A stretch of 64,000 bases of DNA from a virus (IMGVR_UViG_3300048074_000119), one strand, 5' to 3'; numbered from the stretch's first letter, positions 1,760 through 60,225 are shown. Notes: generated by a model not told the origin, from the sequence alone. Program-made: numbers and translations.

Positions 1760-2011
1760 ATGGATCAAGAGCGGATGAAGGTTCAGGCTTGGATGGAGAA
1801 GCAGCAGATCGGGCTCGACCTCCCGGTCCGGGTGCAGCTCAAGATCGACGGCGAAGTCTTCTGGTTCAGCCTGAAGATCGGCCTCGACTTCGCGAACCGC
1901 ATCGAGAACGATCCCATCGTGTCCGCCTACACGCCGCACTGGGCGCCGTGGCAGTTGCGATGCACCCGTCACTTCCTGTTGTGTGTGCCCAAGCCGGAGG
2001 ACGGAGCATGA
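1760..2011 (+). CDS. hypothetical protein
   Basis: ATG just after last tRNA; stop overlaps next start. Confidence 0.55.
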   Translation: MDQERMKVQAWMEKQQIGLDLPVRVQLKIDGEVFWFSLKIGLDFANRIENDPIVSAYTPHWAPWQLRCTRHFLLCVPKPEDGA

Positions 2012-2415
2012 GCGGCAAGACCACGTACGCCGAGGGGTTCGAGCGGTGCATCCACAGCCTTTCCGCGACCGAGTGGAAGTTCGCGGCAGGCAGCCGACGC
2101 GACGTCACGGCGCCGTTGCAGTTCACGCTGGCGAGCTGGTCGGCCAAGTACATCCTGATCGACGAGTTGTACGTGGGCGACGAGCTGTGCGCGGTGAAGG
2201 TGCCAGGAACACTCGTGTCCGACGACCGGAGCCTCGAGCGGTACGCGCCGTTGCTGCTGACCACCGCAGCAACCGACCTAGCGATGGTTCTGGGTCGCCC
2301 GCCGTACCTGATTCGCGATCACGTCGGCAAGGACATCACCGTCGTCCTGCGCAACCTCACCGCCAACCCCGTGCAGGTGTACGGGGCGATCATCGAGGTG
2401 GCTGAGCGATCGTGA
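2008..2415 (+). CDS. beta-sandwich protein, divergent member of the 59656 family
   Basis: ILIDELYVG and GKDITVVLRNLTANPVQVYGAI align with LVVDDIRIG and GITISLSLRNISGNPVTFRAAM. Confidence 0.55.
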   Translation: MSGKTTYAEGFERCIHSLSATEWKFAAGSRRDVTAPLQFTLASWSAKYILIDELYVGDELCAVKVPGTLVSDDRSLERYAPLLLTTAATDLAMVLGRPPYLIRDHVGKDITVVLRNLTANPVQVYGAIIEVAERS

Positions 2416-2606
2416 GCTACGGTGGCGCGCGCGAGGCGCGCAAGCGTGAAGCCGACCTCGAGTTCTTGGCGCGGTGCGTGACGGCGACCGAGCCGGAGCT
2501 GCTCAAGATGCTGCGCGACCTGGGCAAGAACAGCCCGGAGTGGAAGCGCGTCGCCGTGAAGCGTGCGCTGTCGCGGATCGCCAAGGCGCGGTTGCGGTCG
2601 TTTTGA
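2412..2606 (+). CDS. small hypothetical protein
   Basis: Coupled ORF in operon. Confidence 0.5.
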   Translation: MSYGGAREARKREADLEFLARCVTATEPELLKMLRDLGKNSPEWKRVAVKRALSRIAKARLRSF

Positions 2607-2631
2607 CGTATGGCCCGCGTAGGGGTATAAC
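2603..2631 (+). promoter_or_regulatory. sigma70-like promoter, leaderless
   Basis: TTGACG-17-TATAAC; ATG 6 nt downstream at 2638. Confidence 0.75.
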
Positions 2632-2637
2632 CGGGCC

Positions 2638-3480
2638 ATGGCGGCGGACGACATCGATCGGGAGCTGGAACACGCGGAGCGAGCCGGCAACGAGCGCCTC
2701 GCCAACATGCTGCGCGAGTTGCGCGCGACGCGGTTGGACCGGAAGGACGCGGCCAAGCTCTACCTCGGCAACGAGCAGCCGGTCATCACGCTGACCGGCC
2801 TCGACAGCAAGGTGCTCTGGTGGCAGGCGCGCCGTCTGCTGGACGAGCACCTGAACGTGGAGCTGGGGATCCTCTGGTCGGACTCGCGCGACGAGCCGCG
2901 GTACATGCGGCGGTCGGCGGTCTGCTCCGCGCTCGAGCGCCTGCCGATGCGCTGCGCCGTGCACGTCTGTGGGGCGGCCGCGACCAAGGCCTTCCTCGGT
3001 CTAGAGACGGACGACCGCTCCGACGTGTCGCACGCCACGATGCGCGATGCCATCCGTCAGTACGCGACCCGTGTGCAGATCAACGGCCGGGTCAGCGCGC
3101 TCCATGTCGCGCGGGCAACCGGCCTGTTCCGGCGCACCGTCATCACGCAGTGGAGCCGCCCGGACGCGAACAGGTCCTGGGACGACGCGGCGGGACGCAC
3201 GTACTTCCCCAACACGGCGCTCTTGGTGGACGCCTCGGGTGGCCGAGGGGTGGAGCCCGAGCACTGGGAGGTGCCTGATGTGAAGGCTCCGGTGGGGTTC
3301 GCGGGTGGGCTGAGCCTCGAGAACCTGGCCTTCCACATGCCGAAGATCCTGGCGCTGTCCAAGCCGGGCTTCTGGATCGACATGGAGACCAGCCTCCGCA
3401 CGGACGACTGGTTCGACATGGAGCGAGCCAAGGCCACCGTCCAGGCGTTCGAGACACTGATGAAGCGGGCCGGGCTGTGA
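2638..3480 (+). CDS. phosphoribosylanthranilate isomerase (TrpF)-like TIM barrel
   Basis: LLVDASGGRG, VGFAGGL..EN, WIDMETSLR motifs. Confidence 0.7.
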   Translation: MAADDIDRELEHAERAGNERLANMLRELRATRLDRKDAAKLYLGNEQPVITLTGLDSKVLWWQARRLLDEHLNVELGILWSDSRDEPRYMRRSAVCSALERLPMRCAVHVCGAAATKAFLGLETDDRSDVSHATMRDAIRQYATRVQINGRVSALHVARATGLFRRTVITQWSRPDANRSWDDAAGRTYFPNTALLVDASGGRGVEPEHWEVPDVKAPVGFAGGLSLENLAFHMPKILALSKPGFWIDMETSLRTDDWFDMERAKATVQAFETLMKRAGL

Positions 3481-3866
3481 AACGCGGTCTGGCGCGCCTC
3501 GTCTGGTGGTCGGCCCGCGAGGGGCCGAAGGTGATCGAGCGCCCGCTCGCGCGGGTCGAGGCCGCCACCCTGGGGAGAGCACTGCGCGCGCTCGGGGAAC
3601 TGTTCCCGGTGGGCATGGAGGTGGCGCGTCTGCGGCGAGAGGCCGAACGCATGCGGGAAGAGTTCAGGGACTTCGAGCGGCGTTCTGCGCGGGTGCACAA
3701 GAGGATGGCGAAGGTGCAGCGCAACATCGAGCAGACCAATCGCCTCATCAAGGCGACGGTGGAGCAGAACGTGCAGCTGTCGGCGCGGTACAAGGCGGCG
3801 CAAGACGAGGCGGCCGCTCTGCGGCTCCACGCTCTGCTCCCACGAAAGAAGGCGATCCAGTGCTGA
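3477..3866 (+). CDS. coiled-coil hypothetical protein
   Basis: Heptad-rich, coupled ORF. Confidence 0.5.
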   Translation: MKRGLARLVWWSAREGPKVIERPLARVEAATLGRALRALGELFPVGMEVARLRREAERMREEFRDFERRSARVHKRMAKVQRNIEQTNRLIKATVEQNVQLSARYKAAQDEAAALRLHALLPRKKAIQC

Positions 3867-8631: not shown

Positions 8632-9223
8632 CACGATCAACGTCTACGTCTACCGCCACGCCGAGGGCGTCGGCCTGTCGCTCAACGACCTGCGGGTGGC
8701 AGGTCCCAAGCCGAGAGGTGGCGCCGAGGTCATCCACTCGTTCGACGTCCACATGGCCGACCTGCTCCTCGCTCTACGGCCGGATGGTTCGGAGTCGTCG
8801 ACCTTCGACGCGAAGAGCGACACGCCGAAGTCGCCGAGCCAGGCCATGCAGGTGCTGGCGGCATTCGCGCGCACGGCCCCCGGTCGCTTGCCGGAGCGTG
8901 TCGAGAAGGCGCTGCAGTTGGCGGAGGTGAGTGCCTTCTCGCACAGTGGCAAGGCGACCGCGCTGGGGACGAAGTCGATCGTCGTCCGTATCGGCGATTT
9001 CGAGTCCGTGGCAGTGGACGAGTCTGGGCGTCCCATCAGGTCGACGACGGTAGAGGCGTACGAGCTGCGGTCGCTCCAGTTGAGGACGCGGCAAGATCGC
9101 CTGACTGTCGAGAACAATGGATGGCTCTCAGGTTGTGCTCGCGACGAGGTGCCGATGGTGCTGTTGTCGAGAGTGGACTTCGAGCGCCTCGTTCTGTTCG
9201 CGGAGGCGCCAACGGGTCTGTAG
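8624..9223 (+). CDS. hypothetical protein
   Basis: Coupled ORF ending before a promoter. Confidence 0.5.
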   Translation: MADTINVYVYRHAEGVGLSLNDLRVAGPKPRGGAEVIHSFDVHMADLLLALRPDGSESSTFDAKSDTPKSPSQAMQVLAAFARTAPGRLPERVEKALQLAEVSAFSHSGKATALGTKSIVVRIGDFESVAVDESGRPIRSTTVEAYELRSLQLRTRQDRLTVENNGWLSGCARDEVPMVLLSRVDFERLVLFAEAPTGL

Positions 9224-9225
9224 TC

Positions 9226-9254
9226 TTGACGATGGTCCGGGTATGGGCAACACT
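9226..9254 (+). promoter_or_regulatory. sigma70-like promoter, leaderless
   Basis: TTGACG-17-AACACT; ATG 7 nt downstream at 9262. Confidence 0.6.
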
Positions 9255-9261
9255 GGGCCAC

Positions 9262-9759
9262 ATGATGAATCCCAACACCACGCCCATCGCTGACCCCCGC
9301 CCGCTCCTCCTGCTGATCCCCGAGACCATCGTCGCCGGGCGCAACTCGGCGCTCACCGAGCCGTTCCTCCGAGCGTATCGCGAGCGCCACCCGACGGCGC
9401 CCGCGCTCGCGACGCTGAGGCCCATGCCCGACATCCTGAAGGTGGTCCCGGCGTCTTGGCGGCTGGTGCTCATCCCCGAGCTGTCCATCCTGCCGCAGAG
9501 GCTGATCGTGGACAGCAAGGAGCTGGTGCTCGGCGCGCCCCCGGACGAGGCGGCGAAGAACATCATCCTCAAGTCGGCGAGCCCGGCGAAGCTCGAAGAG
9601 GCGTACTCGTTCGAGCGTTTCATGGAGAGCTGGCCGGGGTCCATCCCGGATCTGCACTTCGAGCGCGTCGCCAAGCGCGCGGAGATCGTCCTCGAGATCG
9701 AGAACAACAACGAGGGCCCGGTGCTCTTCCGCGGCGCACTGCTCGGCAGCGGCGGCTGA
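9262..9759 (+). CDS. hypothetical protein
   Basis: Starts immediately after promoter. Confidence 0.55.
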   Translation: MMNPNTTPIADPRPLLLLIPETIVAGRNSALTEPFLRAYRERHPTAPALATLRPMPDILKVVPASWRLVLIPELSILPQRLIVDSKELVLGAPPDEAAKNIILKSASPAKLEEAYSFERFMESWPGSIPDLHFERVAKRAEIVLEIENNNEGPVLFRGALLGSGG

Positions 9760-11254: not shown

Positions 11255-11704
11255 GTGACCTTGCTCCGTCTCTCCGAGACCGCGTTCTTCGTCGTCTGCG
11301 TCGGCGCCGCGCTCGTGCTGCTGGTGCTGATCGTGGCGGCCGTGGCGGACCTGCCGATCGGGCTTGTGGCAGGCCTCTGGGGCGTGGTGCGTGTGGTCCC
11401 GGCGCTGATCTGGTTGAAGTGGCGCGCGTTCAAGTCGTGGCTGTGGATGAAGGTGGTCTGGCCGATCCGTCGCCGGAAGGACGATCGGCTCATCGCGGAG
11501 AGGGAGCGCAAGGGGTTGCCCGTCTACATCCGCTGCGCCGATCACAAGGACTTTGGGGGGAGCTGCGAGAACGATGCGACGTGGGCCATCATCGCCGACT
11601 TCAACCCAGACAACATGCCGACGTACTGCGACGGTTGCGCGGAGAAGTGCGTGGAGAAGGCCGATGGAACCATGAAGCGTGTGGGACCGGTGGAGCGCCG
11701 ATGA
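11255..11704 (+). CDS. membrane protein with C-terminal Cys cluster
   Basis: Two TM segments; CxxC pairs. Confidence 0.5.
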   Translation: MTLLRLSETAFFVVCVGAALVLLVLIVAAVADLPIGLVAGLWGVVRVVPALIWLKWRAFKSWLWMKVVWPIRRRKDDRLIAERERKGLPVYIRCADHKDFGGSCENDATWAIIADFNPDNMPTYCDGCAEKCVEKADGTMKRVGPVERR

Positions 11705-12984
11705 AGACCACGTTCCAGAGGTTGGACAACGACCTCGTGCTGGGTGTCGCCAAGAACAAGCACCTGAACTCCGTGGCCGTGCTCGTGGCTGTGCGGGTGG
11801 GGTCGCGCGACGAGCCCAAGGGGATGCACGGGGCAGCGCACTTCCTCGAGCACATGCTCTTCCGGGGAACGAAGCGGCGACCGAACTCGTTGGCGCTCAC
11901 CGGGCTGGTGGAGTCGAAGGGTGGCGACTGCAACGCCTTCACGGACAAGGACCTGACGTGCCTCCACGTCCGGATGGTGAAGAACGACGGCCTGGTGGCG
12001 GTGGACGTCGTGCACGACATGATAGCGAACCCGCTCCTCCGCACGGCCGATGTGAAGCAAGAGCGCGTGGTCGTGCGCGACGAGATCGCCGCCTCCGACA
12101 ACGACCCGAACCAGACGCTCTGGAAGCTGTCGGAGAGCATCGCGTACGCAGGAACGGGTCTCGAGCATCCGGTCTTGGGGACCGATGTGGACTTCTCTGC
12201 CGCGTCGCTCCGCAAGTTCTTCCGCTACCACTACGTGCCGCGCAAGATGGCGGTGGTGTTGGCAGGCGCCGTCGACGACGAGGTCATCGCAGAGGCGACC
12301 CGGCTGTTCGGGTCCCTGCCGTACGTGCCCTCGGTGTCGAACAGCAAGATGGTCCACGTCGAGCACATGGCCCCGGAGCCACCCCCACCGGGAGTCTCGT
12401 TCAAGGTGGCGGGCACCGATCGCCTCGACGTCGTCATGCGCTTCCCGGGGGTGCCCGAGGGACACCCTCACGACCGGGCCCTCGAACTGCTGATGCTGGC
12501 GTTGGGCGGCTTCTCCTCCGGCCGCCTGTTCCAGTCTCTCCGGGAGCGGGATGGGCTCTGCTACGCCATCCAAGCCTCCGTGGAGGGGCATCGCGGCGTG
12601 GGGTCAGCGATCATCACGACCGAGTTGAGCCCAGAGAAGTTCGGCCTCGCGATGCAGGCCATCTGGAAGGAGGTCTGGGCGGTCCGGAAGCGCGGCCTGA
12701 GCGTCGAGGAGCTCAAGGCGGTCAAGGCCTACAGCCAAGCGAACGTGCTGTTGCAGAAGGACCAGCCGCTGCAGGTGGCGGAGGAGGCGGCCCGCGCGGT
12801 GCTCCTCAGCCGCTACGAGACCCCGGCAGAAGAGATCCGGAGGATCGACGCGGTCACGCTCGAGGACATCCGGGTGGTGGCCAAGCTCTACCTGGATCTG
12901 ACCAAGGTGCACGTGGCGGTCGTGGGACCGGCCTCGGCGCGCCGGAGCGTCGAGAAGCCGATCGCGGCCCCGTGGCTCTGGTGA
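11701..12984 (+). CDS. M16 family zinc metallopeptidase
   Basis: GSRDE, HFLEHMLFRGT (HxxEH), NAFT, LFQSLRERDGLCY motifs. Confidence 0.92.
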   Translation: MKTTFQRLDNDLVLGVAKNKHLNSVAVLVAVRVGSRDEPKGMHGAAHFLEHMLFRGTKRRPNSLALTGLVESKGGDCNAFTDKDLTCLHVRMVKNDGLVAVDVVHDMIANPLLRTADVKQERVVVRDEIAASDNDPNQTLWKLSESIAYAGTGLEHPVLGTDVDFSAASLRKFFRYHYVPRKMAVVLAGAVDDEVIAEATRLFGSLPYVPSVSNSKMVHVEHMAPEPPPPGVSFKVAGTDRLDVVMRFPGVPEGHPHDRALELLMLALGGFSSGRLFQSLRERDGLCYAIQASVEGHRGVGSAIITTELSPEKFGLAMQAIWKEVWAVRKRGLSVEELKAVKAYSQANVLLQKDQPLQVAEEAARAVLLSRYETPAEEIRRIDAVTLEDIRVVAKLYLDLTKVHVAVVGPASARRSVEKPIAAPWLW

Positions 12985-12994
12985 CCGACGGCCG

Positions 12995-13023
12995 TTGACA
13001 ACCGCCCATGCATGGGCCATCCT
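12995..13023 (+). promoter_or_regulatory. sigma70-like promoter with palindromic spacer, leaderless
   Basis: TTGACA-17-CATCCT; spacer holds the perfect palindrome GCCCATGCATGGGC; ATG 6 nt downstream at 13030. Confidence 0.7.
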
Positions 13024-13029
13024 CGGCCC

Positions 13030-15188: not shown

Positions 15189-15500
15189 ATGAGCAACAAA
15201 GATGTGGTCGTCTACGACACCGACACGCTGCGAAAGCTCCGCGATTTCACGTTCGATCCGGACAAGCCGTTCCGCGAAAGCGTCAACACGTTTCTGGAGG
15301 TGCTGGGTGCCGCGCGCGACGTGGCTGGGTGGACTGGCACACTCAGTTTCGGGGTCATGTGTGGGGTCGTGCTCAAGGTCAGCCACTATGGCTGGATGCT
15401 GAAGAAGCCGGGCGTTCTGCTCGATCGGGGTGAGTGGGCCCCCACCTTGGCGGATCCGGAATCGTTCGTGAGCGCGCTCGAGGCGTGGTGCAGCCCGTGA
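15189..15500 (+). CDS. hypothetical protein
   Basis: RBS GAGGAG upstream. Confidence 0.55.
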   Translation: MSNKDVVVYDTDTLRKLRDFTFDPDKPFRESVNTFLEVLGAARDVAGWTGTLSFGVMCGVVLKVSHYGWMLKKPGVLLDRGEWAPTLADPESFVSALEAWCSP

Positions 15501-15661
15501 GTCACGAACCGCGACTTCGCCGCCTCCGCTCTATCATGGAGGACGAAGGCCTTCTGGTTCGGCGGCGAAGCGTGCAGGGGCGATACGTCGCCGCGTGGGT
15601 GACGCTGTCCATCGGCATCGCCATGCTGGTGTACTTCATGGTTCACGGGGGTTCCCAGTGA
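15497..15661 (+). CDS. small membrane protein
   Basis: C-terminal TM; GTGA overlap. Confidence 0.45.
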   Translation: MSHEPRLRRLRSIMEDEGLLVRRRSVQGRYVAAWVTLSIGIAMLVYFMVHGGSQ

Positions 15662-16056
15662 GCGTAGAGGGTGACGCGCCCGCCGCGGTGGTGCACGACG
15701 AGCAGTGCGACCAAGACCGAGCCAAGAGGGAGGCATGCTTCTGTGGTGCGTCGGCCGCGACGTCGCCAGGGCAGCTCATGACCCAGCTCTCGTGGGCTCG
15801 GATGCAGTACCAAGAGCGGGTCGAGCAGCTCTGCGCGTCGGCAGGGCGCCCCGTCGTCGAAGCCGCCTTGGCGCTGCTCCCGCAGGGTCCTGTCGAGACG
15901 AAGACGCACGAGGAGGAGAAGAGGTTCCAGCTGACGCTGTGGCTGGCGCGCGACGAGCACGCCCAGGCCGCTCGGAAGGTCATCGCCGACGGTGGCATCT
16001 ACTGCGTCTATCACGGTGGCGACATGCGTCGCTGCCCACCCGGATCGCACACGTAG
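15658..16056 (+). CDS. hypothetical protein
   Basis: GTGA overlap. Confidence 0.45.
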   Translation: MSVEGDAPAAVVHDEQCDQDRAKREACFCGASAATSPGQLMTQLSWARMQYQERVEQLCASAGRPVVEAALALLPQGPVETKTHEEEKRFQLTLWLARDEHAQAARKVIADGGIYCVYHGGDMRRCPPGSHT

Positions 16057-16064
16057 GAGGTCTC

Positions 16065-17333: not shown

Positions 17334-17335
17334 CG

Positions 17336-18090: not shown

Positions 18091-18102
18091 GGAGAGGCGT
18101 TC

Positions 18103-28231: not shown

Positions 28232-28304
28232 CCCCTGATCCTACCACGCGCTTGCGCCGCGCTTCGGGATTGAGGCCCGTCCTCGAGCCCGGTACGGTTC
28301 TCGG

Positions 28305-50631: not shown

Positions 50632-52145
50632 GTTGAGCGGCCTGCGTGGTGTGTGGATTCGTTCAGGCGGTCGCCTCGCACCTCCCCGTGCGCTTGCTCC
50701 CAGCGACGTTGAGCGGCCTGCGTGGTGTGTGGATTCGTTCAGGCTGTCGCACAACGGTCGAACGGCCTGCGTGTGTGGATTCGTTCAGGGTCGGCTTGTG
50801 CCCCTTCGGCTCGCGGCCGCAGCGAGCGGCAAGTTGAGCGGCCTGCGTGGCGTATGGATTCGTTCAGGATGATGCCTCCTCTGCGTGCTGGACCACCCAG
50901 AACGGCCTGCGTTGTGTGGATTCGTTCAGGGTTACGCATGTGCTTGGTCGCTCGGCCGCTGCGTGTTGGTTGAGCGGCCTGCGTGGTGTGTGGATTCGTT
51001 CAGGGGGGAAGGCCGACAGTTCTAGGCCTGCGTGGTTGTGGATTTCATTCAGGGCCATGACCTGGACCAGCTCGCGGGTTGAGCGGCCCCGCGTGATGTG
51101 TGGATTCGTTCAGGGACAGGCTGGCTGACTCGTACCGCGAAGGGGGTTGAGCGGCCTGCGCAGGCAGGGTGAGGCCCAAAGCCACGCACCTCAGGCCTGG
51201 TGTTGAGCGGCCTGCGTGGTGTGTGGATTCGTTCAGGCTGGCGGGCCACCGACGGTGTGGTGTGTGGACTCGTTCAGGGCGTCGAGCACAGTGTGCCCCA
51301 CTGACCGCCGGTTGGATTCGTGCAGGAGGGCGTCCACGAATAGGCCTGTGAACACGCCGCCGACTGTTGAGTGCCGTTCAGGGGCGAGAGACCCGCGATG
51401 CAAGTATCGCGGGTTTGGCGGTGTGTGCGTTCATGGAGCCCGGAGAGCCTAGAGACCACGTGCGCGTCGTCCGGCCGTTGATTGTCTGCGTGATGTGACG
51501 ATTCGTTCAGGACACCCGGGCAAGCGAGACGCATCATCGAGGCCTTGAGCTGCCTGCGGATTCGTTCAGGGCGCGAGGCTCGTAGCCGCTCCCCAATAGG
51601 GAGGTCTGTTGAGCGGCCTGCGTGGATTCGTTCAGGAAGCACGCTCCACAGAATCAAGATCAACACTCTCCGGTTGAGCGGCCTGCGTGGTGTGTGGATC
51701 TGTTCAGGCTGTTGGGTGCGTATCTCAGGCTCAATGGCGGACACCCCTGGAGATCATGGTGACGTGGATTTCGTCAGGCGGCTGCCGCGCTCGTGGTTCG
51801 ATGGGTTCGGTCAGGGCGCTCCACCTCCATTCTCCGCGGCTAGTAGGGGTCGATGTGGATGCTCCGTCGCGGCCTGCGTGGGGTGTGGATTCGTTCAGGG
51901 CGATCAAGTCCGCGCAAAGTTCCGCTGTCAGGGAGGGGACGCTTCCGATGAGCGCGGTACGCCGCAGGGTCATCGACTAGCGAGCCATCAATGGGGATTC
52001 GTTCAGGTCGTCAACCTCCGCTGGTTCCGAGACCTGCTGATGCTGATGACCGCAGGAGCCCCGCCGGGATAGCCTGTGTGGAGAATTCGTCAGGACGTCG
52101 CGATGCAGTCCACCTCCGGATTGACTTGTGTGTGTGGATCGTAGG
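50632..52145 (+). CRISPR. degenerate CRISPR-like array, 36-bp repeat, no cas genes in window
   Basis: GTTGAGCGGCCTGCGTGGTGTGTGGATTCGTTCAGG exact at 50632, 50708, 50969, 51202; near-exact at 50833, 51078, 51673; about 15 further decayed copies; unique spacers. Confidence 0.75.
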
Positions 52146-52537
52146 GCGTCCGCTCAGGCTATCTTGCCTCACGAAGACTCGCGCAGGGCCAAGGCGCACT
52201 ACTGCAGGTCGCGCACGTGCTTGGTCGCGGTTCCGAAGGCGCACTACTGCAGGGACCTGACACACGAGCTCGAAGCGCAGGTGACGGAGTCACGGATCTT
52301 GGGCGAGCGGGCCTGCGCAGGTTCTACGCGATCGGATGCATCCCCCTTCGTGTCGTGCGGGCATACACAGCAGGGGTCCGGGCCAGTTCGCGCCAAGACG
52401 CAGGTCGCGAGTACGTGACCGCTAGGCAGGGCACCAGTATCAAGCACATGGCAGGTGGACGAATCACGGCTTGGCGGGCTAGACCGCGGCCTGATTCACA
52501 AGACCCCGCAGGTCGTAGCCTCGTGTCTCCGCGGCGC

Positions 52538-53044
52538 TCAGCCGCTGACGAAGTCGCGAATCTCGGCAGGGCCGAGTCCAGACAGTGCCCCCACGACGAC
52601 CCAGTGTCGTGCGCGCGGGTCACGGGTCGGGATGGTTGCCAGCTCGGGGTTCGCCTCGGTCAGTTCGTCGTAGAGTCCGTCCACCAGCACCTGCCGCTCG
52701 AGGTGGTCGCCCGCCTCGGCGAGCGCCATCTGGGCGCGGTCGGCGTCCACCGGGGAGACCGATAGGTGGTAGTGGTGCGACCCCATCGCGATCGACGGGC
52801 GTCCGCGAGGCGCCCAGCGTCGCACGAGGTCGAGCCACAGCTCGCGGTCGACCCGGAACGGTGTCCGGGCGGCCTGAGGGTCACAGTTCGCGCACGCGCA
52901 CCCCACGGGGTGGTGCACGACCAGCTTCTGGAGCAGCGGCATCGTGAGCCCGACAGCCGCGAGTGCGGTGACGACCATGGAGTCGATCTTGGCGTCGGCC
53001 GCCACCTGGACGCCGAGGGCAGAGAGCTCGTCGAAGCGGGTCAC
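52538..53044 (-). CDS. hypothetical protein
   Basis: CACANC; ORF in minus block. Confidence 0.5.
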   Translation of the reverse strand: MTRFDELSALGVQVAADAKIDSMVVTALAAVGLTMPLLQKLVVHHPVGCACANCDPQAARTPFRVDRELWLDLVRRWAPRGRPSIAMGSHHYHLSVSPVDADRAQMALAEAGDHLERQVLVDGLYDELTEANPELATIPTRDPRARHWVVVGALSGLGPAEIRDFVSG

Positions 53045-53053
53045 CGGACCATC

Positions 53054-53467
53054 CTACGATGCCCAGGCCGGGATCGTCCACGGAGGGTCCCCCTCGAGTC
53101 GTTCGGCCCAACGCCAGCCTGCGTGGCCGCCCCAGAGCTGCCAGGCGACCCAGCCGTGGGTGTGGTCCCGGTCCCAGCCCGGCCGATGGTCGACTTGGTG
53201 GCGACGGAACCAGTTCCGCATCATGCGGAGGGTCTCGCGCGGGATGCTGCCGCCACGCGCGAGCGCTCGCGCGCGCTCGAGCGCGCCCTCCGTCAGCCCG
53301 GCTCCCCCGAACCCTTCGTCCACGAGGCGGAGGCCGTCCGCGGCCGCCTTGGAGACCCCGGCGGGGATCTCGGCGACCGCGAGGCGGGTGGGGCGCACGG
53401 CGCGCACGGTCGACCGGCGCGCCCCCCGCCGCCGCTTGCGCGAACGCTTCTTCCGGACCGTGGCCAC
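53054..53467 (-). CDS. conserved phage protein
   Basis: G...RAR.LA......ET...M..WF.RH...AW.LWGG.AG..WA motif recalled from phage head-region genes. Confidence 0.7.
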   Translation of the reverse strand: MATVRKKRSRKRRRGARRSTVRAVRPTRLAVAEIPAGVSKAAADGLRLVDEGFGGAGLTEGALERARALARGGSIPRETLRMMRNWFRRHQVDHRPGWDRDHTHGWVAWQLWGGHAGWRWAERLEGDPPWTIPAWAS

Positions 53468-53476
53468 CCGCCGAGG

Positions 53477-53800
53477 TTAGCCGGTCTTCGTGCGGAGCGC
53501 GATCCCGTCATCGGCCAGGCGCTGGTCGCACCAGACCCTCGCGTCGGCCTCGGAGTCGCGCACGCACTCGACCGCCGGTCCGCGCAGGGAGCGAACCCGA
53601 GCGCACCATCGGCCGTCGTCCAGTGGGAAGACGGCAGCACACCAGACCTGAGGGTCGTCCAGAGTTCGCCCGCGAACAGAGCGCAACGAGCCCTTGGGCT
53701 CGGACCACGGCGAGGCCGTGGGCGGGAGGCTGTCGCGGACGACGGCGACATCGTCCCCCGAGAGCGTGGGGATAGCGGCGAGGATCTCGTCGAGGGTCAT
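53477..53800 (-). CDS. hypothetical protein
   Basis: Coupled ORF. Confidence 0.45.
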   Translation of the reverse strand: MTLDEILAAIPTLSGDDVAVVRDSLPPTASPWSEPKGSLRSVRGRTLDDPQVWCAAVFPLDDGRWCARVRSLRGPAVECVRDSEADARVWCDQRLADDGIALRTKTG

Positions 53801-54441
53801 GCGTTGACCCTGGCGAGGCGCGAACGGTCGGCCTGCGCCTGTGCGATCGCGGACGCGAGCGCGGCGCCCGCCGTCGGGCCGGTCGCCGAGAACGTCCGCC
53901 GTCCGGGTGCCTGCGCGGTGGCGAGGTGCGCGCCGTGGGTCACCGGGGGCGCCAACAGGTTGATGCGGAGGTCGGCGGGGATGAGGTCCTCGAGCGTCAC
54001 GGCCCGGGGCCCGTCGGAGACCACCTCGACCACCTCGGCGGCGGGTCGTGCGGGCGACGGGACGTCGGCGCGCGCGCGCCCCCGGCTGCCGGGCTTCTTG
54101 CGCGGGGTGGCGACCTTGGGGGGAGGCGGGGTGGCGCTCGCGGCGATCGCAAGCGAGGCCTTCTCCTGCGCGGCCTCGCCGACCGTGAACACCTCGAACA
54201 CGGGCTTGCCGACGATGGCCACGATGGCAGCCAGCATCTTGAGCGATGGCCGGGCGCCCCCGAGCTCCATCTTGCGCAGCCGCGTCACGTTGACCCCGAC
54301 CTTGGGTGCCCAGTCGCTGCGCGTGAAGCCGAGCTTCTCCCGGATCAGCTTGATCTGGTTGCTGATGTTGGCCGTGGCCCGGGCGGCGCGGATCCGTGGG
54401 TCCACGACCAACTTGTAGCTGGGGTCGTGCTTCCCGCCCAT
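53797..54441 (-). CDS. XRE-family HTH regulator
   Basis: IKLIREKLGFTRSDWA.KVGV....L..ME.G...PS. Confidence 0.8.
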   Translation of the reverse strand: MGGKHDPSYKLVVDPRIRAARATANISNQIKLIREKLGFTRSDWAPKVGVNVTRLRKMELGGARPSLKMLAAIVAIVGKPVFEVFTVGEAAQEKASLAIAASATPPPPKVATPRKKPGSRGRARADVPSPARPAAEVVEVVSDGPRAVTLEDLIPADLRINLLAPPVTHGAHLATAQAPGRRTFSATGPTAGAALASAIAQAQADRSRLARVNA

Positions 54442-54442
54442 C

Positions 54443-54760
54443 TCAGTTCTCGGTCTCCTCGCGGATGCGGGGGGCGTTCGAGATGATGGGGGGGAGGGCG
54501 GGCTTGTCGACGACGATGCTGGCGATCGTCAGGGCGACGCTGGCGTCGATCAGCTGACAGATTTCGGTGGCCGTCAGCTGCACGAAGATGGCGTGGGTCA
54601 GGCGCCGGTTGCACAGCTCGGCCGCCTGGACGCAGGTCTTGTAGAGGAGGCCCGACTCGGAGAGCATGCTCTTGATCGTGGTCGCGGACTGGACCGCGTC
54701 GGCGATCAGGAACTCGATGGGCTTCTTGGCGGGTGCGGGGGGCGGGGGCGGGGATTCCAT
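54443..54760 (-). CDS. hypothetical protein
   Basis: ATG 6 nt after TACCAT. Confidence 0.5.
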   Translation of the reverse strand: MESPPPPPAPAKKPIEFLIADAVQSATTIKSMLSESGLLYKTCVQAAELCNRRLTHAIFVQLTATEICQLIDASVALTIASIVVDKPALPPIISNAPRIREETEN

Positions 54761-54832
54761 GCGGCGATGGTACCAGCCATGGGTCGAAAAGGCCACCGTG
54801 ACGTACCTGTTCGGACCATGGTAGGCTGACCC

Positions 54833-55360
54833 ATGGCTTCCGGGGACTTGCAGAGCCAGATCCTGGCGCACGTGCGCATCCACGGCGGTATCGCGCACAT
54901 CGCGCAATCCGCGGAGGAATGGGGGACGAAGGTGGAGACCATCAGAAGCGTTCTGCGTCGCCTGCGAGACCAGAAGAAGATCCACTACCTCCTGCACGAG
55001 CACATCCGCATCGTCGATCCCGCGCTCGCCGCCCCCGCTCGGCCGCCCCCTCCCCCTCCGCCGACCGTGCCCGCGGTCCCAGAGGCGAAGCGGCGCAAGA
55101 GGTCGCCCCCGCCGCCGCCTCCCCGAACGCTGCCGCCGCCCCGCCGCCTCGAGTTCGACTTCGACGACGAGAGCGAAGAGCAGGCACAGGAAGAAGCGGC
55201 CGCCGAAGAGGAAGAGGAGACGCCCCGCAAGCTGGTGACCGTCGGGGAACTCTCCGACGAAGAAGAGACGCGCCTGTTGCGCGTCCTCACCGAGTACCGG
55301 AAGACAGCCGACCGAGAGACGGCCGACCGAGAGAGGGAGACGGAGACGGATGGCACGTAG
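54833..55360 (+). CDS. wHTH-like protein with Pro-rich and acidic tail
   Basis: Divergent from 54760; GTGACG-18-TAGGCT upstream. Confidence 0.55.
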   Translation: MASGDLQSQILAHVRIHGGIAHIAQSAEEWGTKVETIRSVLRRLRDQKKIHYLLHEHIRIVDPALAAPARPPPPPPPTVPAVPEAKRRKRSPPPPPPRTLPPPRRLEFDFDDESEEQAQEEAAAEEEEETPRKLVTVGELSDEEETRLLRVLTEYRKTADRETADRERETETDGT

Positions 55361-55775
55361 AGTGACGGTCAAGGACTGGTACGCCGAGGCCATCGAGCGT
55401 TTCGGTGCGGACACCGATGCTTGGCAGGTGGTCTGCCCCGTCTGCAAGCACCCACAGACGATCGCGGAGATGAAAGCCGTCGGAATGCCGGAGGCGAGCT
55501 TCGCCTTCTCGTGCATCGGCAGATGGATCTCTGGTTCCAAGGAAGCGTTCGACAAGACGAAGACGGGCCCGTGCACCTACGCGGGTGGGGGGCTGTTCAA
55601 GCTCAATCCGGTGACGGTGGTGTTCCCCGACGGCAAGGAGCAGCATGCGTTCGAGTGGGCCGAGCCGACGACTTCTGCCTGCGCCTGCGGTCACTCCGTC
55701 GAGGAGCACGCGCCGACGGTCGAGCACCCTGGCTCACGAGGCTGCGCCGAGTGCGACTGCATCGCGTTCGTCTGA
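55350..55775 (+). CDS. VVA0879-like phage zinc-binding protein
   Basis: RFG.D...W..VCP.C.H.Q, FSCIGRW, C.YAGGGLFKLNP. Confidence 0.7.
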   Translation: MARRVTVKDWYAEAIERFGADTDAWQVVCPVCKHPQTIAEMKAVGMPEASFAFSCIGRWISGSKEAFDKTKTGPCTYAGGGLFKLNPVTVVFPDGKEQHAFEWAEPTTSACACGHSVEEHAPTVEHPGSRGCAECDCIAFV

Positions 55776-55954
55776 CCAGACCCGCTGTCGCCGCTGCTCC
55801 GACTGTCGCGGTGAGGAGCATCACTTCAGCATCGAGATCGTGGACTTCGCCGACAATGAGCCTGACCACCCCGCGGCGAAGGCAGGGCACCAGTCGTGGA
55901 TGGTCTGCAAGCACTGCGAAGCCTGGAAGCCGCTCACCGACAAGGACCTCGACG

Positions 55955-56353
55955 ATGCCTGAAACGCTCGACGCCGCCCGCCTCCTCGAACTGTTCGAGG
56001 CCATCGAGGCCGCCCCCGAATGGGAGCGCGAGATCGACATGAACTGCGCTATCGCCTCGGTCGAGTTCGACCGTCAGGTGACGGCCAAGGACACCAAGTG
56101 GGAGATCGTTCTCACGAAGGTGGGGCGCGACGGGAGCGAGGACGAGGACACACGCGCCGAGGCGCTCGCGGCGCTGTTCACGACGATCGATCGCCAGACG
56201 CTGCGCGACATGGTCGTGGCTCTACGACAGGTGAAGACCGCGCTCGGCGCGTACGACACACGCCTCACCCAGTCTGCCACCGACAGTTCGAGCGCGACGG
56301 CCGGAGCGCTGCTGGCGCACGCTCTTCGCACGGCGGGGTTCTCCACCCGATGA
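55955..56353 (+). CDS. hypothetical protein
   Basis: Coupled ORF. Confidence 0.5.
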   Translation: MPETLDAARLLELFEAIEAAPEWEREIDMNCAIASVEFDRQVTAKDTKWEIVLTKVGRDGSEDEDTRAEALAALFTTIDRQTLRDMVVALRQVKTALGAYDTRLTQSATDSSSATAGALLAHALRTAGFSTR

Positions 56354-56814
56354 CGACCGCGAAGAACCGTCCCGAGGGCTTCTGCACGCAGTGCAACAAG
56401 CGGCCTGTGAAGCCAGGACGAAAGCGCTGCGTCACCTGCCTTGCACACGCGAGCCGCTACCACGCGAAACGGGTTGCGGAGGCACTGAAGAGCGGCCTGT
56501 GCACCAAGTGCTGCGAACGAAAGGTGCGCAAAGGAAAGAAGCTCTGCGCGGCGTGTGCAGCCAAGACTCGGGCCTACGTGACGAAGCATCGAACCGAGGG
56601 CAACGCCCTCCTTGCATGCTACGTCTCGACGGAGATGGCCCACGCGGTGAAGGCGGCCGCGCAGGCCAAGGGGCAGAGCGTCAGCGAGTGGCTCCGTGGA
56701 GAGATCGAGCGAGCGCTCAGTCAGCCGACCTCGATCAGTGGCGGTTGTCCTGTGTCAGTCCGAAGACCCGCGTCCGCAGGAAGCTCTGCTCGGCCCGCAA
56801 GTTCGTCATCGTGA
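56350..56814 (+). CDS. tandem zinc-finger plus RHH-like protein
   Basis: Two CxxC...CxxC units; C-terminal VKAAA...G.SVSEWLR. Confidence 0.65.
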   Translation: MTTAKNRPEGFCTQCNKRPVKPGRKRCVTCLAHASRYHAKRVAEALKSGLCTKCCERKVRKGKKLCAACAAKTRAYVTKHRTEGNALLACYVSTEMAHAVKAAAQAKGQSVSEWLRGEIERALSQPTSISGGCPVSVRRPASAGSSARPASSSS

Positions 56815-57304
56815 CGACGCAGTCGCCATCGTCGGCGACGCCGCGGAGCATGATGCTCTGCGGGCCGACGCCGAGTCCGATCGGATCCCCGCCCATCGGC
56901 TCCCAGGGCTCGAGAACGGACCCGCCGTTGCGGAACGCTTTCTCGACGCGCTCGATGCACGTGGGCGTGTGGGTGAGCCCGGTGTTGTAGAGGAGCGCCA
57001 GCTCGAGGCCCGGGCGGTGCTCGAGCTGCGACCAGTGATCGAGCAGGTCGCGAGCGTGCGCGAGCAGCATGCGCGTCGACGACAGCCACGAGATGGCGGG
57101 TCGGTAGAGCGTGTGCTGCATGTCGAAGCGCACGAACCCGTCGCCGATCACGATCTCGCCGTACACGCGGTCGTCGGCAGACTCGACGACGGGGATCGGG
57201 ATGCGCGAACGCTGAAGGCCGAACGCTTCGGAGACGGCCTCAGCCAGCTGCTGCGCCGTCGCCTCGTCGAGGACGATGCGCTCGGTCCAGAGCACCGAGG
57301 TCAT
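56735..57304 (-). CDS. hypothetical protein
   Basis: Convergent overlap with 56350 ORF. Confidence 0.5.
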   Translation of the reverse strand: MTSVLWTERIVLDEATAQQLAEAVSEAFGLQRSRIPIPVVESADDRVYGEIVIGDGFVRFDMQHTLYRPAISWLSSTRMLLAHARDLLDHWSQLEHRPGLELALLYNTGLTHTPTCIERVEKAFRNGGSVLEPWEPMGGDPIGLGVGPQSIMLRGVADDGDCVVTMTNLRAEQSFLRTRVFGLTQDNRH

Positions 57305-57606
57305 CCGCCGTCGGGCTTCTTGCCGCTCCGCTGCTGGCTCTGGATGACGTCCATGTGCCGCTTGTAGATGGTCGCGACGTTGTGCTGCATCTCCTCGAGC
57401 GTGAGCCCGAGCTCGAGCGACTTGGCGACGAAGAGGCTGAGGAACGCGGTGTTCGAGGCGACCTCAAAGTGCCGATCGAACTCCTCCGTAGAGAGAGTCT
57501 TCTCCGAACGGCCCTGCTGGATCTTGATGGTCCCGAGCGCGCTCTGGATCGGAGTCAGGATCCGGGAGGCGCGCATCAGGATCGCTTGCTGTTCTTCGCG
57601 GGTCAT
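57301..57606 (-). CDS. hypothetical protein
   Basis: Coupled ORF. Confidence 0.5.
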   Translation of the reverse strand: MTREEQQAILMRASRILTPIQSALGTIKIQQGRSEKTLSTEEFDRHFEVASNTAFLSLFVAKSLELGLTLEEMQHNVATIYKRHMDVIQSQQRSGKKPDGG

Positions 57607-58571
57607 TGGTCCTCCACCACACCACTCGTGTCCTCGGAGAGAGAGTCGTCGGCGTCCTTCTTCCCGAACGCGCGTCCACGGATGGGACATCTCGGCGCCT
57701 TGCCATCGACGGGCACGCCGAGGATCCAGCGGAGGAGCTTGACGGTGATGCGCCGCTCCTCGGGCGTCAGGCCGTCGTTGTGCGGGTCGCCCTCGCCGGT
57801 CTTGAGGGAGAGGAACGCGCGGTTGATGCGGCTCTTGGTGGGGCGACGCGCGATCTCGAGGAGTGGCTTCTCGGGCTTGCCGCCGAACGCGGCGCTGCCG
57901 ATGCGCACCTTCACCGGGTCGGGCTCGTTGTTGGAGATCAGCTGCTCGAGCCACTGCTCCTGCTCGACGGGCGCGTAGTTGGCGAGCTTGTGCGCCTCCG
58001 AGAGCTGGAACATGGGCGTGTTCTTGCGCCACAGCTCCCGGAGCGGCTGGATGAGGTTCTCCCAGGCCACGGTCGCCTTGGCGATGCGGGTCGCCGAAGC
58101 GTTGTTCACGTTCTGCCGGCTGAAGATCAGTTCTACGGCCTTCTCGAGGGAGAGGCCGTGCTGCACGCGGAGCATCGACACACCCTCGGCGAGCTCGAAG
58201 TCCTTCGGCGGCAGCTGGCTGTTCTCGCCAAAGTTCTCGACCGCCTCGTCGAAGTCGGTCAGCGCGTTGCTGAACACGACGAATACGGGGTAGTCGCGCC
58301 GGTCTTGGTGGAGGACGTCCATCGCCGTCATGCGGCGATATCCAGCGATCAGCCGGTAGATCGCCCCGTCCTTGCGGGCTGGGATCCGCCGCACGCTGAC
58401 CGGCATGCGCTGCCCGTGACTCCCGATCAGGATGGCGAGTTCGATCGTGCTCGGCGCCGCAGGGTCAATCGCGCGGCCTCCACGGGACAGATTCCGACCA
58501 TGATCGACAAAAATCTGATCGCGTCGAACGACGGCCGTATCACGCTGCAAGGTCTCGGGCTCGGGTGCCAC
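57603..58571 (-). CDS. ParB/Srx-like protein
   Basis: G...PV.VR, Y.LIAG.RR..A, EN..R/Q.., following HTH-like segment. Confidence 0.75.
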   Translation of the reverse strand: MAPEPETLQRDTAVVRRDQIFVDHGRNLSRGGRAIDPAAPSTIELAILIGSHGQRMPVSVRRIPARKDGAIYRLIAGYRRMTAMDVLHQDRRDYPVFVVFSNALTDFDEAVENFGENSQLPPKDFELAEGVSMLRVQHGLSLEKAVELIFSRQNVNNASATRIAKATVAWENLIQPLRELWRKNTPMFQLSEAHKLANYAPVEQEQWLEQLISNNEPDPVKVRIGSAAFGGKPEKPLLEIARRPTKSRINRAFLSLKTGEGDPHNDGLTPEERRITVKLLRWILGVPVDGKAPRCPIRGRAFGKKDADDSLSEDTSGVVEDQ

Positions 58572-58704
58572 GAAAAAAAGCCTACGGTTTGGAACCGTAC
58601 ATTGTCAACGATTGCCAACGCTTGACAGTGTAGCGGTACCGAATGCACCGTATCGGGAACGCTACCCGCGAGGGTGGCCGACCGCGAAAGCAGCAGGAAA
58701 ACAG

Positions 58705-58923
58705 ATGCCCCGTGCCCCGAAGCCCGTCAACGACTACCTGCGTTTTGTGCAGCAACTGGCGCACCTGAGCCGCGTCATCGACGTCGACGAGAAGCGTCCG
58801 GAGGAGTGGAAGCGTTCGGCGAAGAAGGACGCACAGCGCCTCATTCGACGCCTGACGCAGGAGAATCGCGTGCGTGCTGCGCCAAAGAAGCGTGAGAAGA
58901 AGGCTCCGAAGACGACGGAATAG
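58705..58923 (+). CDS. small basic protein
   Basis: K/R-rich; A-rich RBS region. Confidence 0.45.
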   Translation: MPRAPKPVNDYLRFVQQLAHLSRVIDVDEKRPEEWKRSAKKDAQRLIRRLTQENRVRAAPKKREKKAPKTTE

Positions 58924-59037
58924 TGATTGATTCCGCGCTAGAAAAGCAGAAGTGGCGTCTGAGGCAAGGTCTCTTTTGCCTTTGACCACTCTCGTGCCGC
59001 ATGATTCTCTCTGATCGTTCACAACGTCGGAGGAGCA

Positions 59038-59556
59038 ATGGCCGAGAGCGTCACCGCAATGAACCAAGCTGCACGTCACGCCCTCACCCGGGCGAACGCG
59101 GTGCTCCAGAGCGTGGAGAACCCGCTGAACGTGGCGGCGGAGGAAGGCACGACCGTCCTCGTGCTCGCGGGCCAGGGCTACATGAGCGGCCGCTGGAACA
59201 ACCCGAAGGTCCCCGTCCTCGGGGCGCCTGTCGAGTTGGTCGGCGTCCTCGCCATGTACGCCGGTGCGCTCGCCAACATGATGCTCGAGGGTCCGCCCGT
59301 CGCCGACCGCTGCATGGTCAACGCGGGCACCGCGCTCCTCGGCGGCATGGCGTTCAAGTATTTCGCGGGCCTCGGCCTCAGCCACCGCCCGGCGACGGCT
59401 GCACCGGCTTCCGTGCCGGCCGCGAGCAAGGGTTACGGAGTGGGTCTGGCGACCCCCCGTCACGATGTGATCGGTGGCGCAGTCCCCCGTCACAACATCA
59501 CGGGGGGCGGCGCGCTCTCGGCCACCGAGGCCGCGCGTCTGGCTGCCCAGCGGTAG
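59038..59556 (+). CDS. membrane-associated putative virion protein
   Basis: RBS GGAGGAG; two hydrophobic segments. Confidence 0.65.
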   Translation: MAESVTAMNQAARHALTRANAVLQSVENPLNVAAEEGTTVLVLAGQGYMSGRWNNPKVPVLGAPVELVGVLAMYAGALANMMLEGPPVADRCMVNAGTALLGGMAFKYFAGLGLSHRPATAAPASVPAASKGYGVGLATPRHDVIGGAVPRHNITGGGALSATEAARLAAQR

Positions 59557-59655
59557 TACGTCCGACCCTCCGTCTGAGCCACGGAGAGTTCTCTCACCAG
59601 CGCGCAACAGTCACGAAACCAAGCACACAGACAACACCCTGAAGGAGTTTCGAGC

Positions 59656-60225
59656 ATGAGCTACCACGACATCGTCGGAGCCGACCTCGCGCTGGGCTAC
59701 CGCCACCACGCCCGCGGCCTCGCCATCGGCGCGGACGACGCGGAGCTGGCCAACGCGCTGGCGACCATCCAGGCCCGCGCCCCCTCGCTGGCCCAGGCCC
59801 TCGCCCCCCAGTCCGCCCAGACCGCGATGGTCCGCGAGCTGGCCGCCCGCAACGCCAGCGTCGTCGTGGCCCGTGAGCCCCTCGACAGCCGGACCCTCAC
59901 CCTGCCGTTCCCCGAGACCGTGATCCCGGCGAACAGCGCGGCGACCATCCAGGTCCTCCCGCAGACCCTGTTCCGCTGCGAGCGGTTCGTGATCCAGTCG
60001 GACATCGCGGGCTCGCTCGTGGTCGACGACATCCGCATCGGCACGCAGAGCCAGTTCTCGGCGTCCGGTCCGGTCCCGGCCCGCTGCTTCAGCGAGGTCG
60101 CGGTCGGCGTCGGTACCCTGTACGACACCGCCGAGCCCGGCATCACGATCAGCCTCTCGCTCCGCAACATCAGCGGCAACCCGGTGACCTTCCGGGCCGC
60201 GATGTTCGGCCGCGCGGTCCGCTGA
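59656..60225 (+). CDS. putative major capsid protein, single jelly-roll-like beta-sandwich
   Basis: A/C-rich leader with AAGGAG; strongly biased codons; all-beta C-domain; dedicated terminator. Fold is inferred. Confidence 0.6.
   Translation: MSYHDIVGADLALGYRHHARGLAIGADDAELANALATIQARAPSLAQALAPQSAQTAMVRELAARNASVVVAREPLDSRTLTLPFPETVIPANSAATIQVLPQTLFRCERFVIQSDIAGSLVVDDIRIGTQSQFSASGPVPARCFSEVAVGVGTLYDTAEPGITISLSLRNISGNPVTFRAAMFGRAVR

Follow-up and report, generated by a model that had tools for sequence, protein, structure and literature searches.

We describe here a jelly-roll domain that occurs in four copies in three genes, and possibly in a fourth gene, of a viral stretch of DNA (IMGVR_UViG_3300048074_000119), whose full length of 64,000 nt (68% GC) is referred to as the window and which belongs to a GC-rich element of ~200 kb. 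The founding gene (59656–60225, protein P0001) belongs to a large protein family that is encoded with a conserved set of late genes in unrelated loci, and we put at about even the chance that it encodes the main self-assembling shell protein of the element's particle. This capsid role, and the roles suggested below for the paralogues, are argued from sequence homology, fold, the size and genomic context of the family, and a predicted self-association.

A jelly-roll domain is shared by three genes of one element

Genuine genes in the window were told from numerous spurious open reading frames (ORFs) by GC content at codon positions. An initial annotation had proposed that one beta-sandwich, jelly-roll-like domain is reused in four dispersed genes, and all four ORFs that it named have coding-type GC content at third codon positions (GC3 0.86–0.97), which is not seen in the stretches 5′ of their proposed starts. 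BLASTP aligned residues 78–186 of P0001 with residues 303–413 of P0002 (16065–17333), with 45 of 111 positions identical (41%; E 3e-24), close to the ~40 in 110 counted earlier by hand. P0001 also matched both halves of P0003 (28921–29889; E 7e-14 for the N-terminal half and 2e-6 for the C-terminal half), as did P0002 (E 4e-6 and 7e-5). A hidden Markov model (HMM) search, one of the checks named in the initial annotation, was run with a profile of 221 family domains against 814 six-frame ORFs of the window and recovered just four copies of weight (E 1e-49, 5e-26, 2e-22, and 8e-32). The motifs quoted earlier, L.LPF, V(D/E)D.R.G..S.F...G.VP, and PG..I...RN, correspond to the conserved columns of alignment A1. 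Together, these sequence comparisons indicate that one domain is common to three genes (Table 1).

The proposal of four sharing genes was thus upheld for 59656, 16065, and 28921 (both halves), while the similarity of 2008–2415 (P0004) is not significant by sequence. BLASTP with P0004 covers just 28 residues (E 1e-3), the family profile matches its last 25 residues only (E 0.007), and profile–profile comparison with hhalign yields 85 co-linear columns, including the PQ, V-G, VP, and N motifs, at a probability of 20%. P0004 is a real gene, with a GC3 of 0.88 and homologues at 59–99% identity, two of them on related long contigs. A marginal profile match to the last two jelly-roll strands was also seen in the C-terminal ~30 residues of the gene at 9121–9759 (E 0.0085), which resembles the weak P0004 match and may be another very divergent copy or chance.

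The domain is predicted to adopt an eight-stranded jelly-roll

AlphaFold2 modelling of P0001 from a 70-sequence alignment gave a predicted local distance difference test score (pLDDT) of 82 overall, with residues 1–25 disordered, residues 29–64 helical, and residues 73–189 forming an eight-stranded jelly-roll at a pLDDT of ~97. The model of P0003 consists of two units, each of a helix and a jelly-roll (pLDDT 82.8, predicted template modelling score 0.74), whose barrels lie ~60 residues apart with two helices between them. Both models are confident jelly-rolls, which bears out the earlier fold assignment, and the domain is accordingly modelled as a jelly-roll and not as an immunoglobulin fold.

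The P0001 model was compared exhaustively with 48,161 PDB representatives, where rows within one Z unit count as ties. The viruses that the initial annotation had named as comparators (Sphaerolipoviridae and P23-77) stand at the top of this search, with matches to HHIV-2 (6h82_b; Z 8.6, 111 residues aligned), the HCIV-1 capsid chain 6h9c_Z (Z 8.2), and P23-77 VP17 (Z 7.4), among which are found a GOLD domain (Z 7.9), SPV1 (Z 7.7), and STIV C381 (4ind; Z 7.7). For P0003 the order differs, with GOLD at 8.7, FlhE at 8.5, and HHIV-2 at 8.2. Judging from its residue range (39–173) and a published description (PMC6414509), 6h82_b is probably the penton protein VP9, which is composed of an N-terminal helix and a single barrel and whose first 40 residues are disordered in HHIV-2. 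This layout of N-terminal helix and barrel matches that of P0001. Structure searches of AlphaFold Database clusters and the ESM Atlas returned nothing beyond generic sandwiches and unnamed clusters of the family itself.

The tandem barrels of P0003 were also considered as a double-jelly-roll-like capsid protein, and this candidate was rejected. All of its Z matches are single-domain, and no double jelly-roll capsid protein aligned over both barrels. Foldseek comparison with the tandem-barrel STIV and PBCV-1 capsid proteins gave template modelling (TM) scores of at most 0.22 and root-mean-square deviations of 16–25 Å; because of these values and of the spacing between its barrels, P0003 does not have double-jelly-roll geometry.

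The founding gene has the strongest expression signals and is predicted to self-associate

The founding gene is preceded by a Shine-Dalgarno sequence and followed by a terminator-like structure (Table 1), which the terminator consensus scan did not call, its T-run being interrupted, and its GC3 of 0.97 is the window maximum. No terminator-like structure follows the other copies. The initial annotation had reserved structural-gene expression signals for 59656 alone; ribosome site, hairpins, and GC3 are indeed strongest there, but GGAGG-type ribosome sites also precede 16065 and 2008.

When three copies of P0001 were modelled together, the interaction prediction score from aligned errors (ipSAE) reached 0.76 against a best control of 0.00, with at least 45% of contacts shared between runs (n = 3) and a partner pLDDT of at least 66. 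In calibration, the ipSAE mark was reached by 20 of 30 proteins with solved structures of two identical chains and by 1 of 23 with single-chain structures, a calibration made with two copies and the tool's own alignments that holds roughly for the three-copy P0001 run. The modelled interface is an open head-to-tail chain in which a face formed by residues 119–157 packs on residues 79–116, 147–151, and 180–185 of the next copy, leaving the outer faces free. Because the chain is open, the model would imply a lattice, or a ring with more subunits than three, and not a closed trimer. This modelling supports self-association of P0001.

P0001 founds a large, virus-associated family

Among 1.84 billion proteins, the domain profile recovered at least 1,155 representative clusters (50% identity) at E ≤ 1e-3. 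Most members are 175–230 aa in length with the domain at the C-terminus, and tandem forms with two to four domains were also found. At the N-terminus they have between one and five copies of a short repeat, [D/E]-[I/L/V]-[I/V]-[A/G]-G, represented in P0001 by HDIVGAD. Such repeats were seen at 59656–59700 of the window, at L008:2087–2240, and at L011:10001–10170, and similar HDVIGGA and ITGGG motifs end the upstream membrane protein (59455–59520); the repeats may be cleavage or docking sites for the papain-fold enzyme encoded next to the family gene (see below).

Neither Pfam nor PHROGs matched any of the four window proteins or 70 family members, and a 70-member profile (A2) found 0 matches among all PDB sequences at E values up to 10. 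Searches by tblastn with four diverse members (P0001, P0174, P0062, and P0049) returned nothing from the 50,697 GenBank phage records of INPHARED, nor did megablast of window positions 58000–64000 against phages. P0001 matched nothing in PLSDB, where only P0049 found a plasmid (pSa001), and a pattern scan of IMG/VR with alignment A3 was likewise empty. No description of the group or of its gene module was found in the literature, and its ESM Atlas clusters carry labels that are 80–95% viral. By these searches the family is large, uncharacterised, and virus-associated, and is new to Pfam, PHROGs, and deposited phage genomes.

The family gene is embedded in a conserved late module

The family gene was read in seven unrelated loci with a GC content of 36–71%, and an eighth locus is found on plasmid pSa001 (Table 1). 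Late genes of seven of these loci (L005 was omitted) were clustered with phmmer. In all seven, the jelly-roll gene lies between a gene for a small upstream membrane protein and one for a downstream protein of ~150 aa, the latter joining a cluster of membrane-anchored peptidoglycan binders. The downstream protein of the window, P0168, had no direct Pfam hit, and a PDB sequence search with it gave nothing useful. Its Atlas model has TM scores of 0.65–0.66 to Transglut_core clusters, with feature hits leading to PF01841, and the Cys, His, and Asp motifs are kept in all seven loci. On this modelling, P0168 has the papain-like core and Cys-His-Asp triad of the transglutaminase-like superfamily. At L011:10611–11819 the transglutaminase-like domain is fused to a transmembrane, Pro-rich PG_binding_1 protein (402 aa), which elsewhere is encoded by a separate downstream gene. 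Because of this fusion, a membrane-anchored, wall-active enzyme is the favoured interpretation of P0168-type proteins, and a maturation protease cutting at the Gly motifs is possible.

Two additional families occur in five of the seven late modules, A7 (~280 aa, coiled-coil) and A8 (~220 aa, Gly-rich, probably all-beta). They were seen across the late regions of L006, L008, L011, L012, L013, and L016, and neither matches any database. A8 was tried as a second, divergent capsid gene and rejected (hhalign probability of 0.6% against the jelly-roll family); its profile retrieved nothing useful from PDB sequences. A weak match of A8 (E 0.004) was observed to the L001 ORF 18614–20329, which contains the called gene 19448–20332.

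By profile search, the domain occurs exactly once in every small element. No family of terminases, portals, HK97 capsids, or tails turned up in Pfam and PHROG scans of the seven loci. The only scan hits in small-element late genes were a weak one of the tape-measure type (E 0.02) and a partial 'baseplate hub' domain in L012 (E 2.5e-7), which probably reflects a shared domain of wall hydrolases. No Walker-A motif was found in the late genes of L001, L005, L006, L012, and L013, that of L008 belonged only to ParA, and no ATPase family was hit. No inverted terminal repeats were found on contigs L005, L006, L008, L012, and L013.

This neighbourhood bears on a rival explanation, in which the jelly-roll is a carbohydrate- or wall-binding module of an entry or lysis cassette, that is, an adhesin or receptor knob acting with wall hydrolases, and 16065–17333 encodes a knob-tipped fibre. 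All neighbours are envelope-directed (the transglutaminase-like/PG_binding_1 fusion, LysM, M23, SLT, LRAT), the structural neighbours of the domain include CBM32 (a carbohydrate-binding module, CBM), discoidin, the furin P-domain, BcsB, and phage tail-fibre tips at Z 6–7, and P0002 is fibre-like, with an arm and a C-terminal domain. We consider this explanation unlikely, since expression signals are strongest at the family gene, which is followed by a terminator of its own and is universally present as the first late gene, whereas knobs typically form closed trimers, unlike the open side-by-side chain predicted here. In addition, no CBM or galactose-binding family had a Pfam hit in the four window proteins or 70 members, and the likeness to these families is one of generic fold only.

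One copy of the whole module is carried by pSa001 (NZ_CP070226.1), a 209.7 kb circular plasmid of a cultured myxobacterium, known for its sandarazol gene cluster. There the module encodes a 278-aa family member and a 263-aa protein along with a membrane protein, a peptidoglycan binder, and proteins of the M23 and LRAT types, and it looks like an inserted virus-like element. Its presence on a replicating plasmid, and that of ParA and ParB genes beside the module in other loci, would also suit a reading in which the module, borne by plasmids or mobile elements, is no part of a virion and instead makes an envelope structure or a polymer at the cell surface (for example, a jelly-roll fibre resembling Ena or a pilus), for which it supplies the membrane anchor and wall-remodelling enzymes. 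Bacillus endospore-appendage subunits are among the structural neighbours (Z 6.0–6.1), the open head-to-tail chain suits a fibre as well, and no packaging ATPase was found. Against this stand the acidic, Gly-rich N-terminus of P0001, in which no signal peptide is evident, the nearby protein-primed polymerases, integrases, and provirus-like islands, which are typical of viruses, and the mainly viral labels (80–95%) of the Atlas clusters, and a surface polymer therefore seems very unlikely.

Table 1. Features of the window and loci that carry the family gene.
Feature	Location	Strand	Description
Founding gene P0001, 189 aa	59656..60225	+	Disordered N-terminus with HDIVGAD, helices at residues 29–64, predicted jelly-roll at 73–189
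Jelly-roll domain of P0001	59872..60222	+	Predicted from AlphaFold2 model, structure search, and profile
Paralogue P0002, 422 aa	16065..17333	+	Basic, Pro-rich, coiled-coil N-terminal region of ~300 aa, then one C-terminal jelly-roll
Jelly-roll domain of P0002	16953..17312	+	Profile E 8e-32; BLASTP E 3e-24 to P0001
Paralogue P0003, 322 aa	28921..29889	+	Unit of helix and jelly-roll repeated in tandem
Jelly-roll 1 of P0003	28978..29349	+	Profile E 5e-26; strands in residues 23–142
Jelly-roll 2 of P0003	29521..29883	+	Profile E 2e-22; strands in residues 203–317
Candidate fourth copy P0004, 135 aa	2008..2415	+	Real gene; domain homology unproven
Shine-Dalgarno sequence AAGGAG	59642..59647	+	8 nt 5′ of the P0001 ATG
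Terminator-like structure	60249..60325	+	Two GC-rich hairpins, then a T-rich run; −61.4 kcal/mol over 110 nt past the stop
Upstream partner P0169, 172 aa	59038..59556	+	N-terminal helix, Gly-rich hydrophobic segments, C-terminal HDVIGGA/ITGGG; 7 of 7 loci; E 5e-39
Downstream partner P0168, 150 aa	60337..60789	+	Predicted transglutaminase-like papain fold; Cys in GADCEDLA, His in LYHIVV, Asp in EDPS; 7 of 7 loci
Peptidoglycan-binder counterpart	60818..61798	+	N-terminal transmembrane helix and C-terminal LysM-like segment; PG_binding_1 proteins elsewhere
Gene coupled to P0003	29889..30506	+	ATG overlaps the P0003 stop (TGATG); GC3 0.94; weak homologue of A7
Window (L001)	This element		Large-genome cargo in other parts of the window, including DnaB and tRNA arrays
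L005	25.9 kb contig		Integrase; M23 and SLT on a matching near-identical contig
L006	14.2 kb contig		Protein-primed PolB
L008	11.3 kb contig		ParA
L011	Island in 68 kb contig		RepB primase/DUF3987
L012	23–29 kb contigs		ParB, SNF2, MazG, protein-primed PolB
L013	17.6 kb contig		ParB, protein-primed PolB, M23
L016, plasmid pSa001 (NZ_CP070226.1), Sandaracinus amylolyticus	122.5–131.3 kb		One copy of the whole module

Paralogues are lineage-specific duplicates

Orthologues of P0002, P0003, and P0004 occur at 52–99% identity on related long contigs (that of P0002, P0014, is 441 aa), and the copies therefore appear to be maintained. A fifth family gene, encoding the two-domain protein P0180 (381 aa), was found at L014:10001–11146 on a contig of 118,738 bp, ~27 kb past the window end. 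Three KaiC/RecA-like ATPases, a TnpB (Cas12f1-like_TNB), two DSPc phosphatases, and a YadA_stalk protein are encoded near it.

In a 220-row domain tree, the domains of the large-genome paralogues join the P0001 clade (Shimodaira–Hasegawa-like approximate likelihood ratio test support of 87), and are separate from the 175 domains of small elements. Within the two-domain proteins, N-domains group with N-domains and C-domains with C-domains, which implies that an old tandem duplication preceded the duplication of the gene. On this phylogeny, the other copies are lineage-specific duplicates. The paralogues are without the founder's N-terminal Gly-motif region.

P0003 is translationally coupled to a gene whose product matches the C-terminal half of A7 (HMM E 1.2e-4, with co-linear motifs). 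The initial annotation had suggested that the copies act as decoration proteins, assembly modulators, or interference factors against related viruses; this coupling to a late-module homologue, the one functional hint obtained, points weakly to a role for P0003 in virion assembly rather than in interference.

Content and distribution of the surrounding element

A protein 99% identical to P0001 is encoded on contigs of 199,967 and 118,738 bp. The ~80 proteins encoded by the window and the next 6 kb include replication, repair, nucleotide, and HNH families, with DnaB, DUF5131, a dNMP phosphatase, HNH endonucleases, and many tRNAs (tRNA arrays) as cargo. No capsid, portal, terminase, or tail family was found among these proteins, and HK97 capsid, portal, and terminase were absent from the Pfam hits precomputed for locus L014. 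In window positions 11419–14895, just 5′ of the paralogue at 16065–17333, an M16 (insulinase-type) peptidase and a VWA-domain protein are encoded in tandem, which is unusual as phage-like cargo.

A search of 185,579 species genomes found a single relative, located on a contig of a Myxococcales metagenome-assembled genome. Public runs containing the locus are bioreactor and activated-sludge samples, and DNA libraries of at least 12 studies contain it at 58–100% of sampled words. RNA contigs from four metatranscriptome libraries (bioreactor and activated sludge) cover nearly all genes of 52000–64000 and 15500–30500 at a depth of 2–7, which gives no gene ranking and may include DNA carry-over.

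The cargo described above is typical of large phages, the Atlas labels of the family clusters are mostly Uroviricota, and only ~70–90 kb of the ~200 kb were inspected, all of which would fit a tailed jumbo phage whose HK97 set lies in the unseen part of the genome, with the family protein serving the head as decoration, fibre, or scaffold-like accessory, and with further decorations encoded by the paralogues. This seems quite unlikely, as the 17–29 kb elements, which are almost fully sampled, have the family gene and no HK97, portal, or terminase hit, tblastn with the four diverse members was empty in the phage records, and the ~80 proteins include no tailed-phage structural family.

A shell protein as the favoured reading

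In the favoured reading of P0001 as a shell protein, the product of 59656 would be a jelly-roll protein made in large amounts, whose copies join side by side to form rings or a lattice, as a capsomer or penton-type subunit. Its gene belongs to a late module ordered as small membrane protein, jelly-roll, transglutaminase-like enzyme, and anchored peptidoglycan binder, often with M23/SLT/LRAT-type hydrolases further downstream, which small elements of 11–29 kb carry together with protein-primed polymerase, integrase, or partition genes. In the large-genome lineage the domain was duplicated, with an old tandem duplication giving rise to a two-domain protein that was then recopied (28921–29889 and the 381-aa paralogue), and with another copy fused behind a long coiled-coil, Pro-rich arm to give 16065–17333. 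The paralogues would then be minor virion, vertex, or spike components built in the shell fold, comparable to PRD1 P31/P5 and STIV A223/C381.

Several observations weigh against such a role. To our knowledge, all known double-stranded DNA (dsDNA) viruses with vertical jelly-roll capsids have a packaging ATPase, and none was found here. No second capsid gene adjoins the family gene, and the ~110–130 kb of the element outside the inspected part could hold an HK97 module. The taxon labels of the Atlas clusters, mostly Uroviricota, point elsewhere, although they are automatic and rest on a minority of members. The occurrence on pSa001 indicates that the module need not belong to a free virus. RNA-library contigs are thin over 59656, 16065, 28921, and the rest alike and do not single out 59656. 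Finally, Z values of 7–8.7 are shared with GOLD, FlhE, nanovirus coat, and CBM-like domains, and the search tool itself states that models lacking true relatives usually have a best Z of 7–8. Because of these ties and this range, the modelled fold alone cannot tell a capsid origin from a lectin-like or GOLD-like one. The capsid-type nature claimed for the domain in the initial annotation thus draws support from the family context and the self-association model, which are consistent with a shell protein, and not from the structural ranking.

More tentatively, the family may supply the capsid protein of bacterial dsDNA viruses without tails that form a large, so far undescribed assemblage, and the window would be part of a ~200 kb derivative of these viruses in Myxococcota. 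These viruses would have genomes of 11–30 kb with protein-primed polymerase, integrase, or partition genes, a membrane-associated shell of one single jelly-roll protein, and no known packaging ATPase. The derivative would have kept the module, come to encode at least five domain genes, and gained jumbo-phage-like cargo (tRNA arrays, DnaB, ubiquitin-like genes, and a CRISPR-like array). We regard this combined scenario as possible rather than probable.

If it is true, a family of >1,000 clusters would mark a widespread, overlooked group of tailless bacterial viruses with an unusual morphogenesis, in which the shell is made of one single jelly-roll protein, no packaging motor is recognisable, and a transglutaminase-like enzyme and a peptidoglycan binder are fixed partners. 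In the lineage of the window, a single genome would show how a shell fold can be copied, repeated in tandem, and attached to arms, which are steps of the kind by which vertex, spike, and double-barrel proteins have been proposed to arise. It would also raise the question of how such a system packages a genome of ~200 kb. A cultured carrier of the module exists in Sandaracinus amylolyticus MSr10575 (pSa001). Should the reading fail, a sizeable uncharacterised jelly-roll family of mobile elements would still deserve a database profile.

Comparison with known systems

The general sandwich is shared with GOLD (p24/TMED) and FlhE (Z 7.0–8.7) and with galactose-binding-like, discoidin, and CBM32 domains (Z ~6–7), from which the family differs in its biological setting and to which it has no sequence relationship (Pfam empty), a warning that the fold is common. 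Like double jelly-roll capsid proteins, P0003 has two tandem barrels in ~320 aa, but not in a pseudo-hexameric geometry.

Reuse of a jelly-roll within one virion is known from PRD1 (penton protein P31 and the N-domain of spike protein P5), STIV (A223 and C381, a triple jelly-roll turret), and HHIV-2 (VP16, with four end to end). As in these viruses, several proteins of one genome here contain the same jelly-roll, whether single, tandem, or arm-borne. Unlike in these viruses, the copies are dispersed over ~58 kb (with one more outside the window) among non-structural genes, rather than gathered in one structural operon, and the comparison is one of genes alone. Among penton proteins (HCIV-1/HHIV-2 VP9 and PRD1 P31), which form pentamers at the vertices of membrane-containing icosahedral viruses, the arrangement of a helix and single barrel matches that of P0001, and the open three-copy chain is compatible with a ring of more than three subunits.

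The closest overall parallel in architecture is provided by sphaerolipovirus VP9 and VP4/VP7 (HHIV-2, HCIV-1) and P23-77 VP16/VP17 (Helvetiavirae), which likewise have an eight-stranded jelly-roll of ~110–120 residues after an N-terminal helix. Further likenesses are a protein size of 135–230 aa, a gene position among small membrane proteins, and the side-by-side self-association predicted here. No sequence or profile similarity connects the two groups, and the hosts here are apparently mesophilic bacteria (Myxococcota; bioreactor and activated sludge) in contrast to haloarchaea or Thermus. In the vertical single jelly-roll capsid module of Sphaerolipoviridae, Matshushitaviridae, and Simuloviridae, two adjacent genes encode a small and a large capsid protein that form heterodimers, and a packaging ATPase of the FtsK/HerA type is encoded next to them. 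Unlike this sphaerolipovirus-type module, that of the family has one copy per small element, and neither a second capsid gene nor such an ATPase adjoins the family gene; its neighbours are a membrane protein and a transglutaminase-like enzyme, the latter being, with the peptidoglycan binder, its invariant company. Because neither a second capsid gene nor a packaging ATPase adjoins it, the family is not part of a sphaerolipovirus-type capsid module, but it may still work like one.

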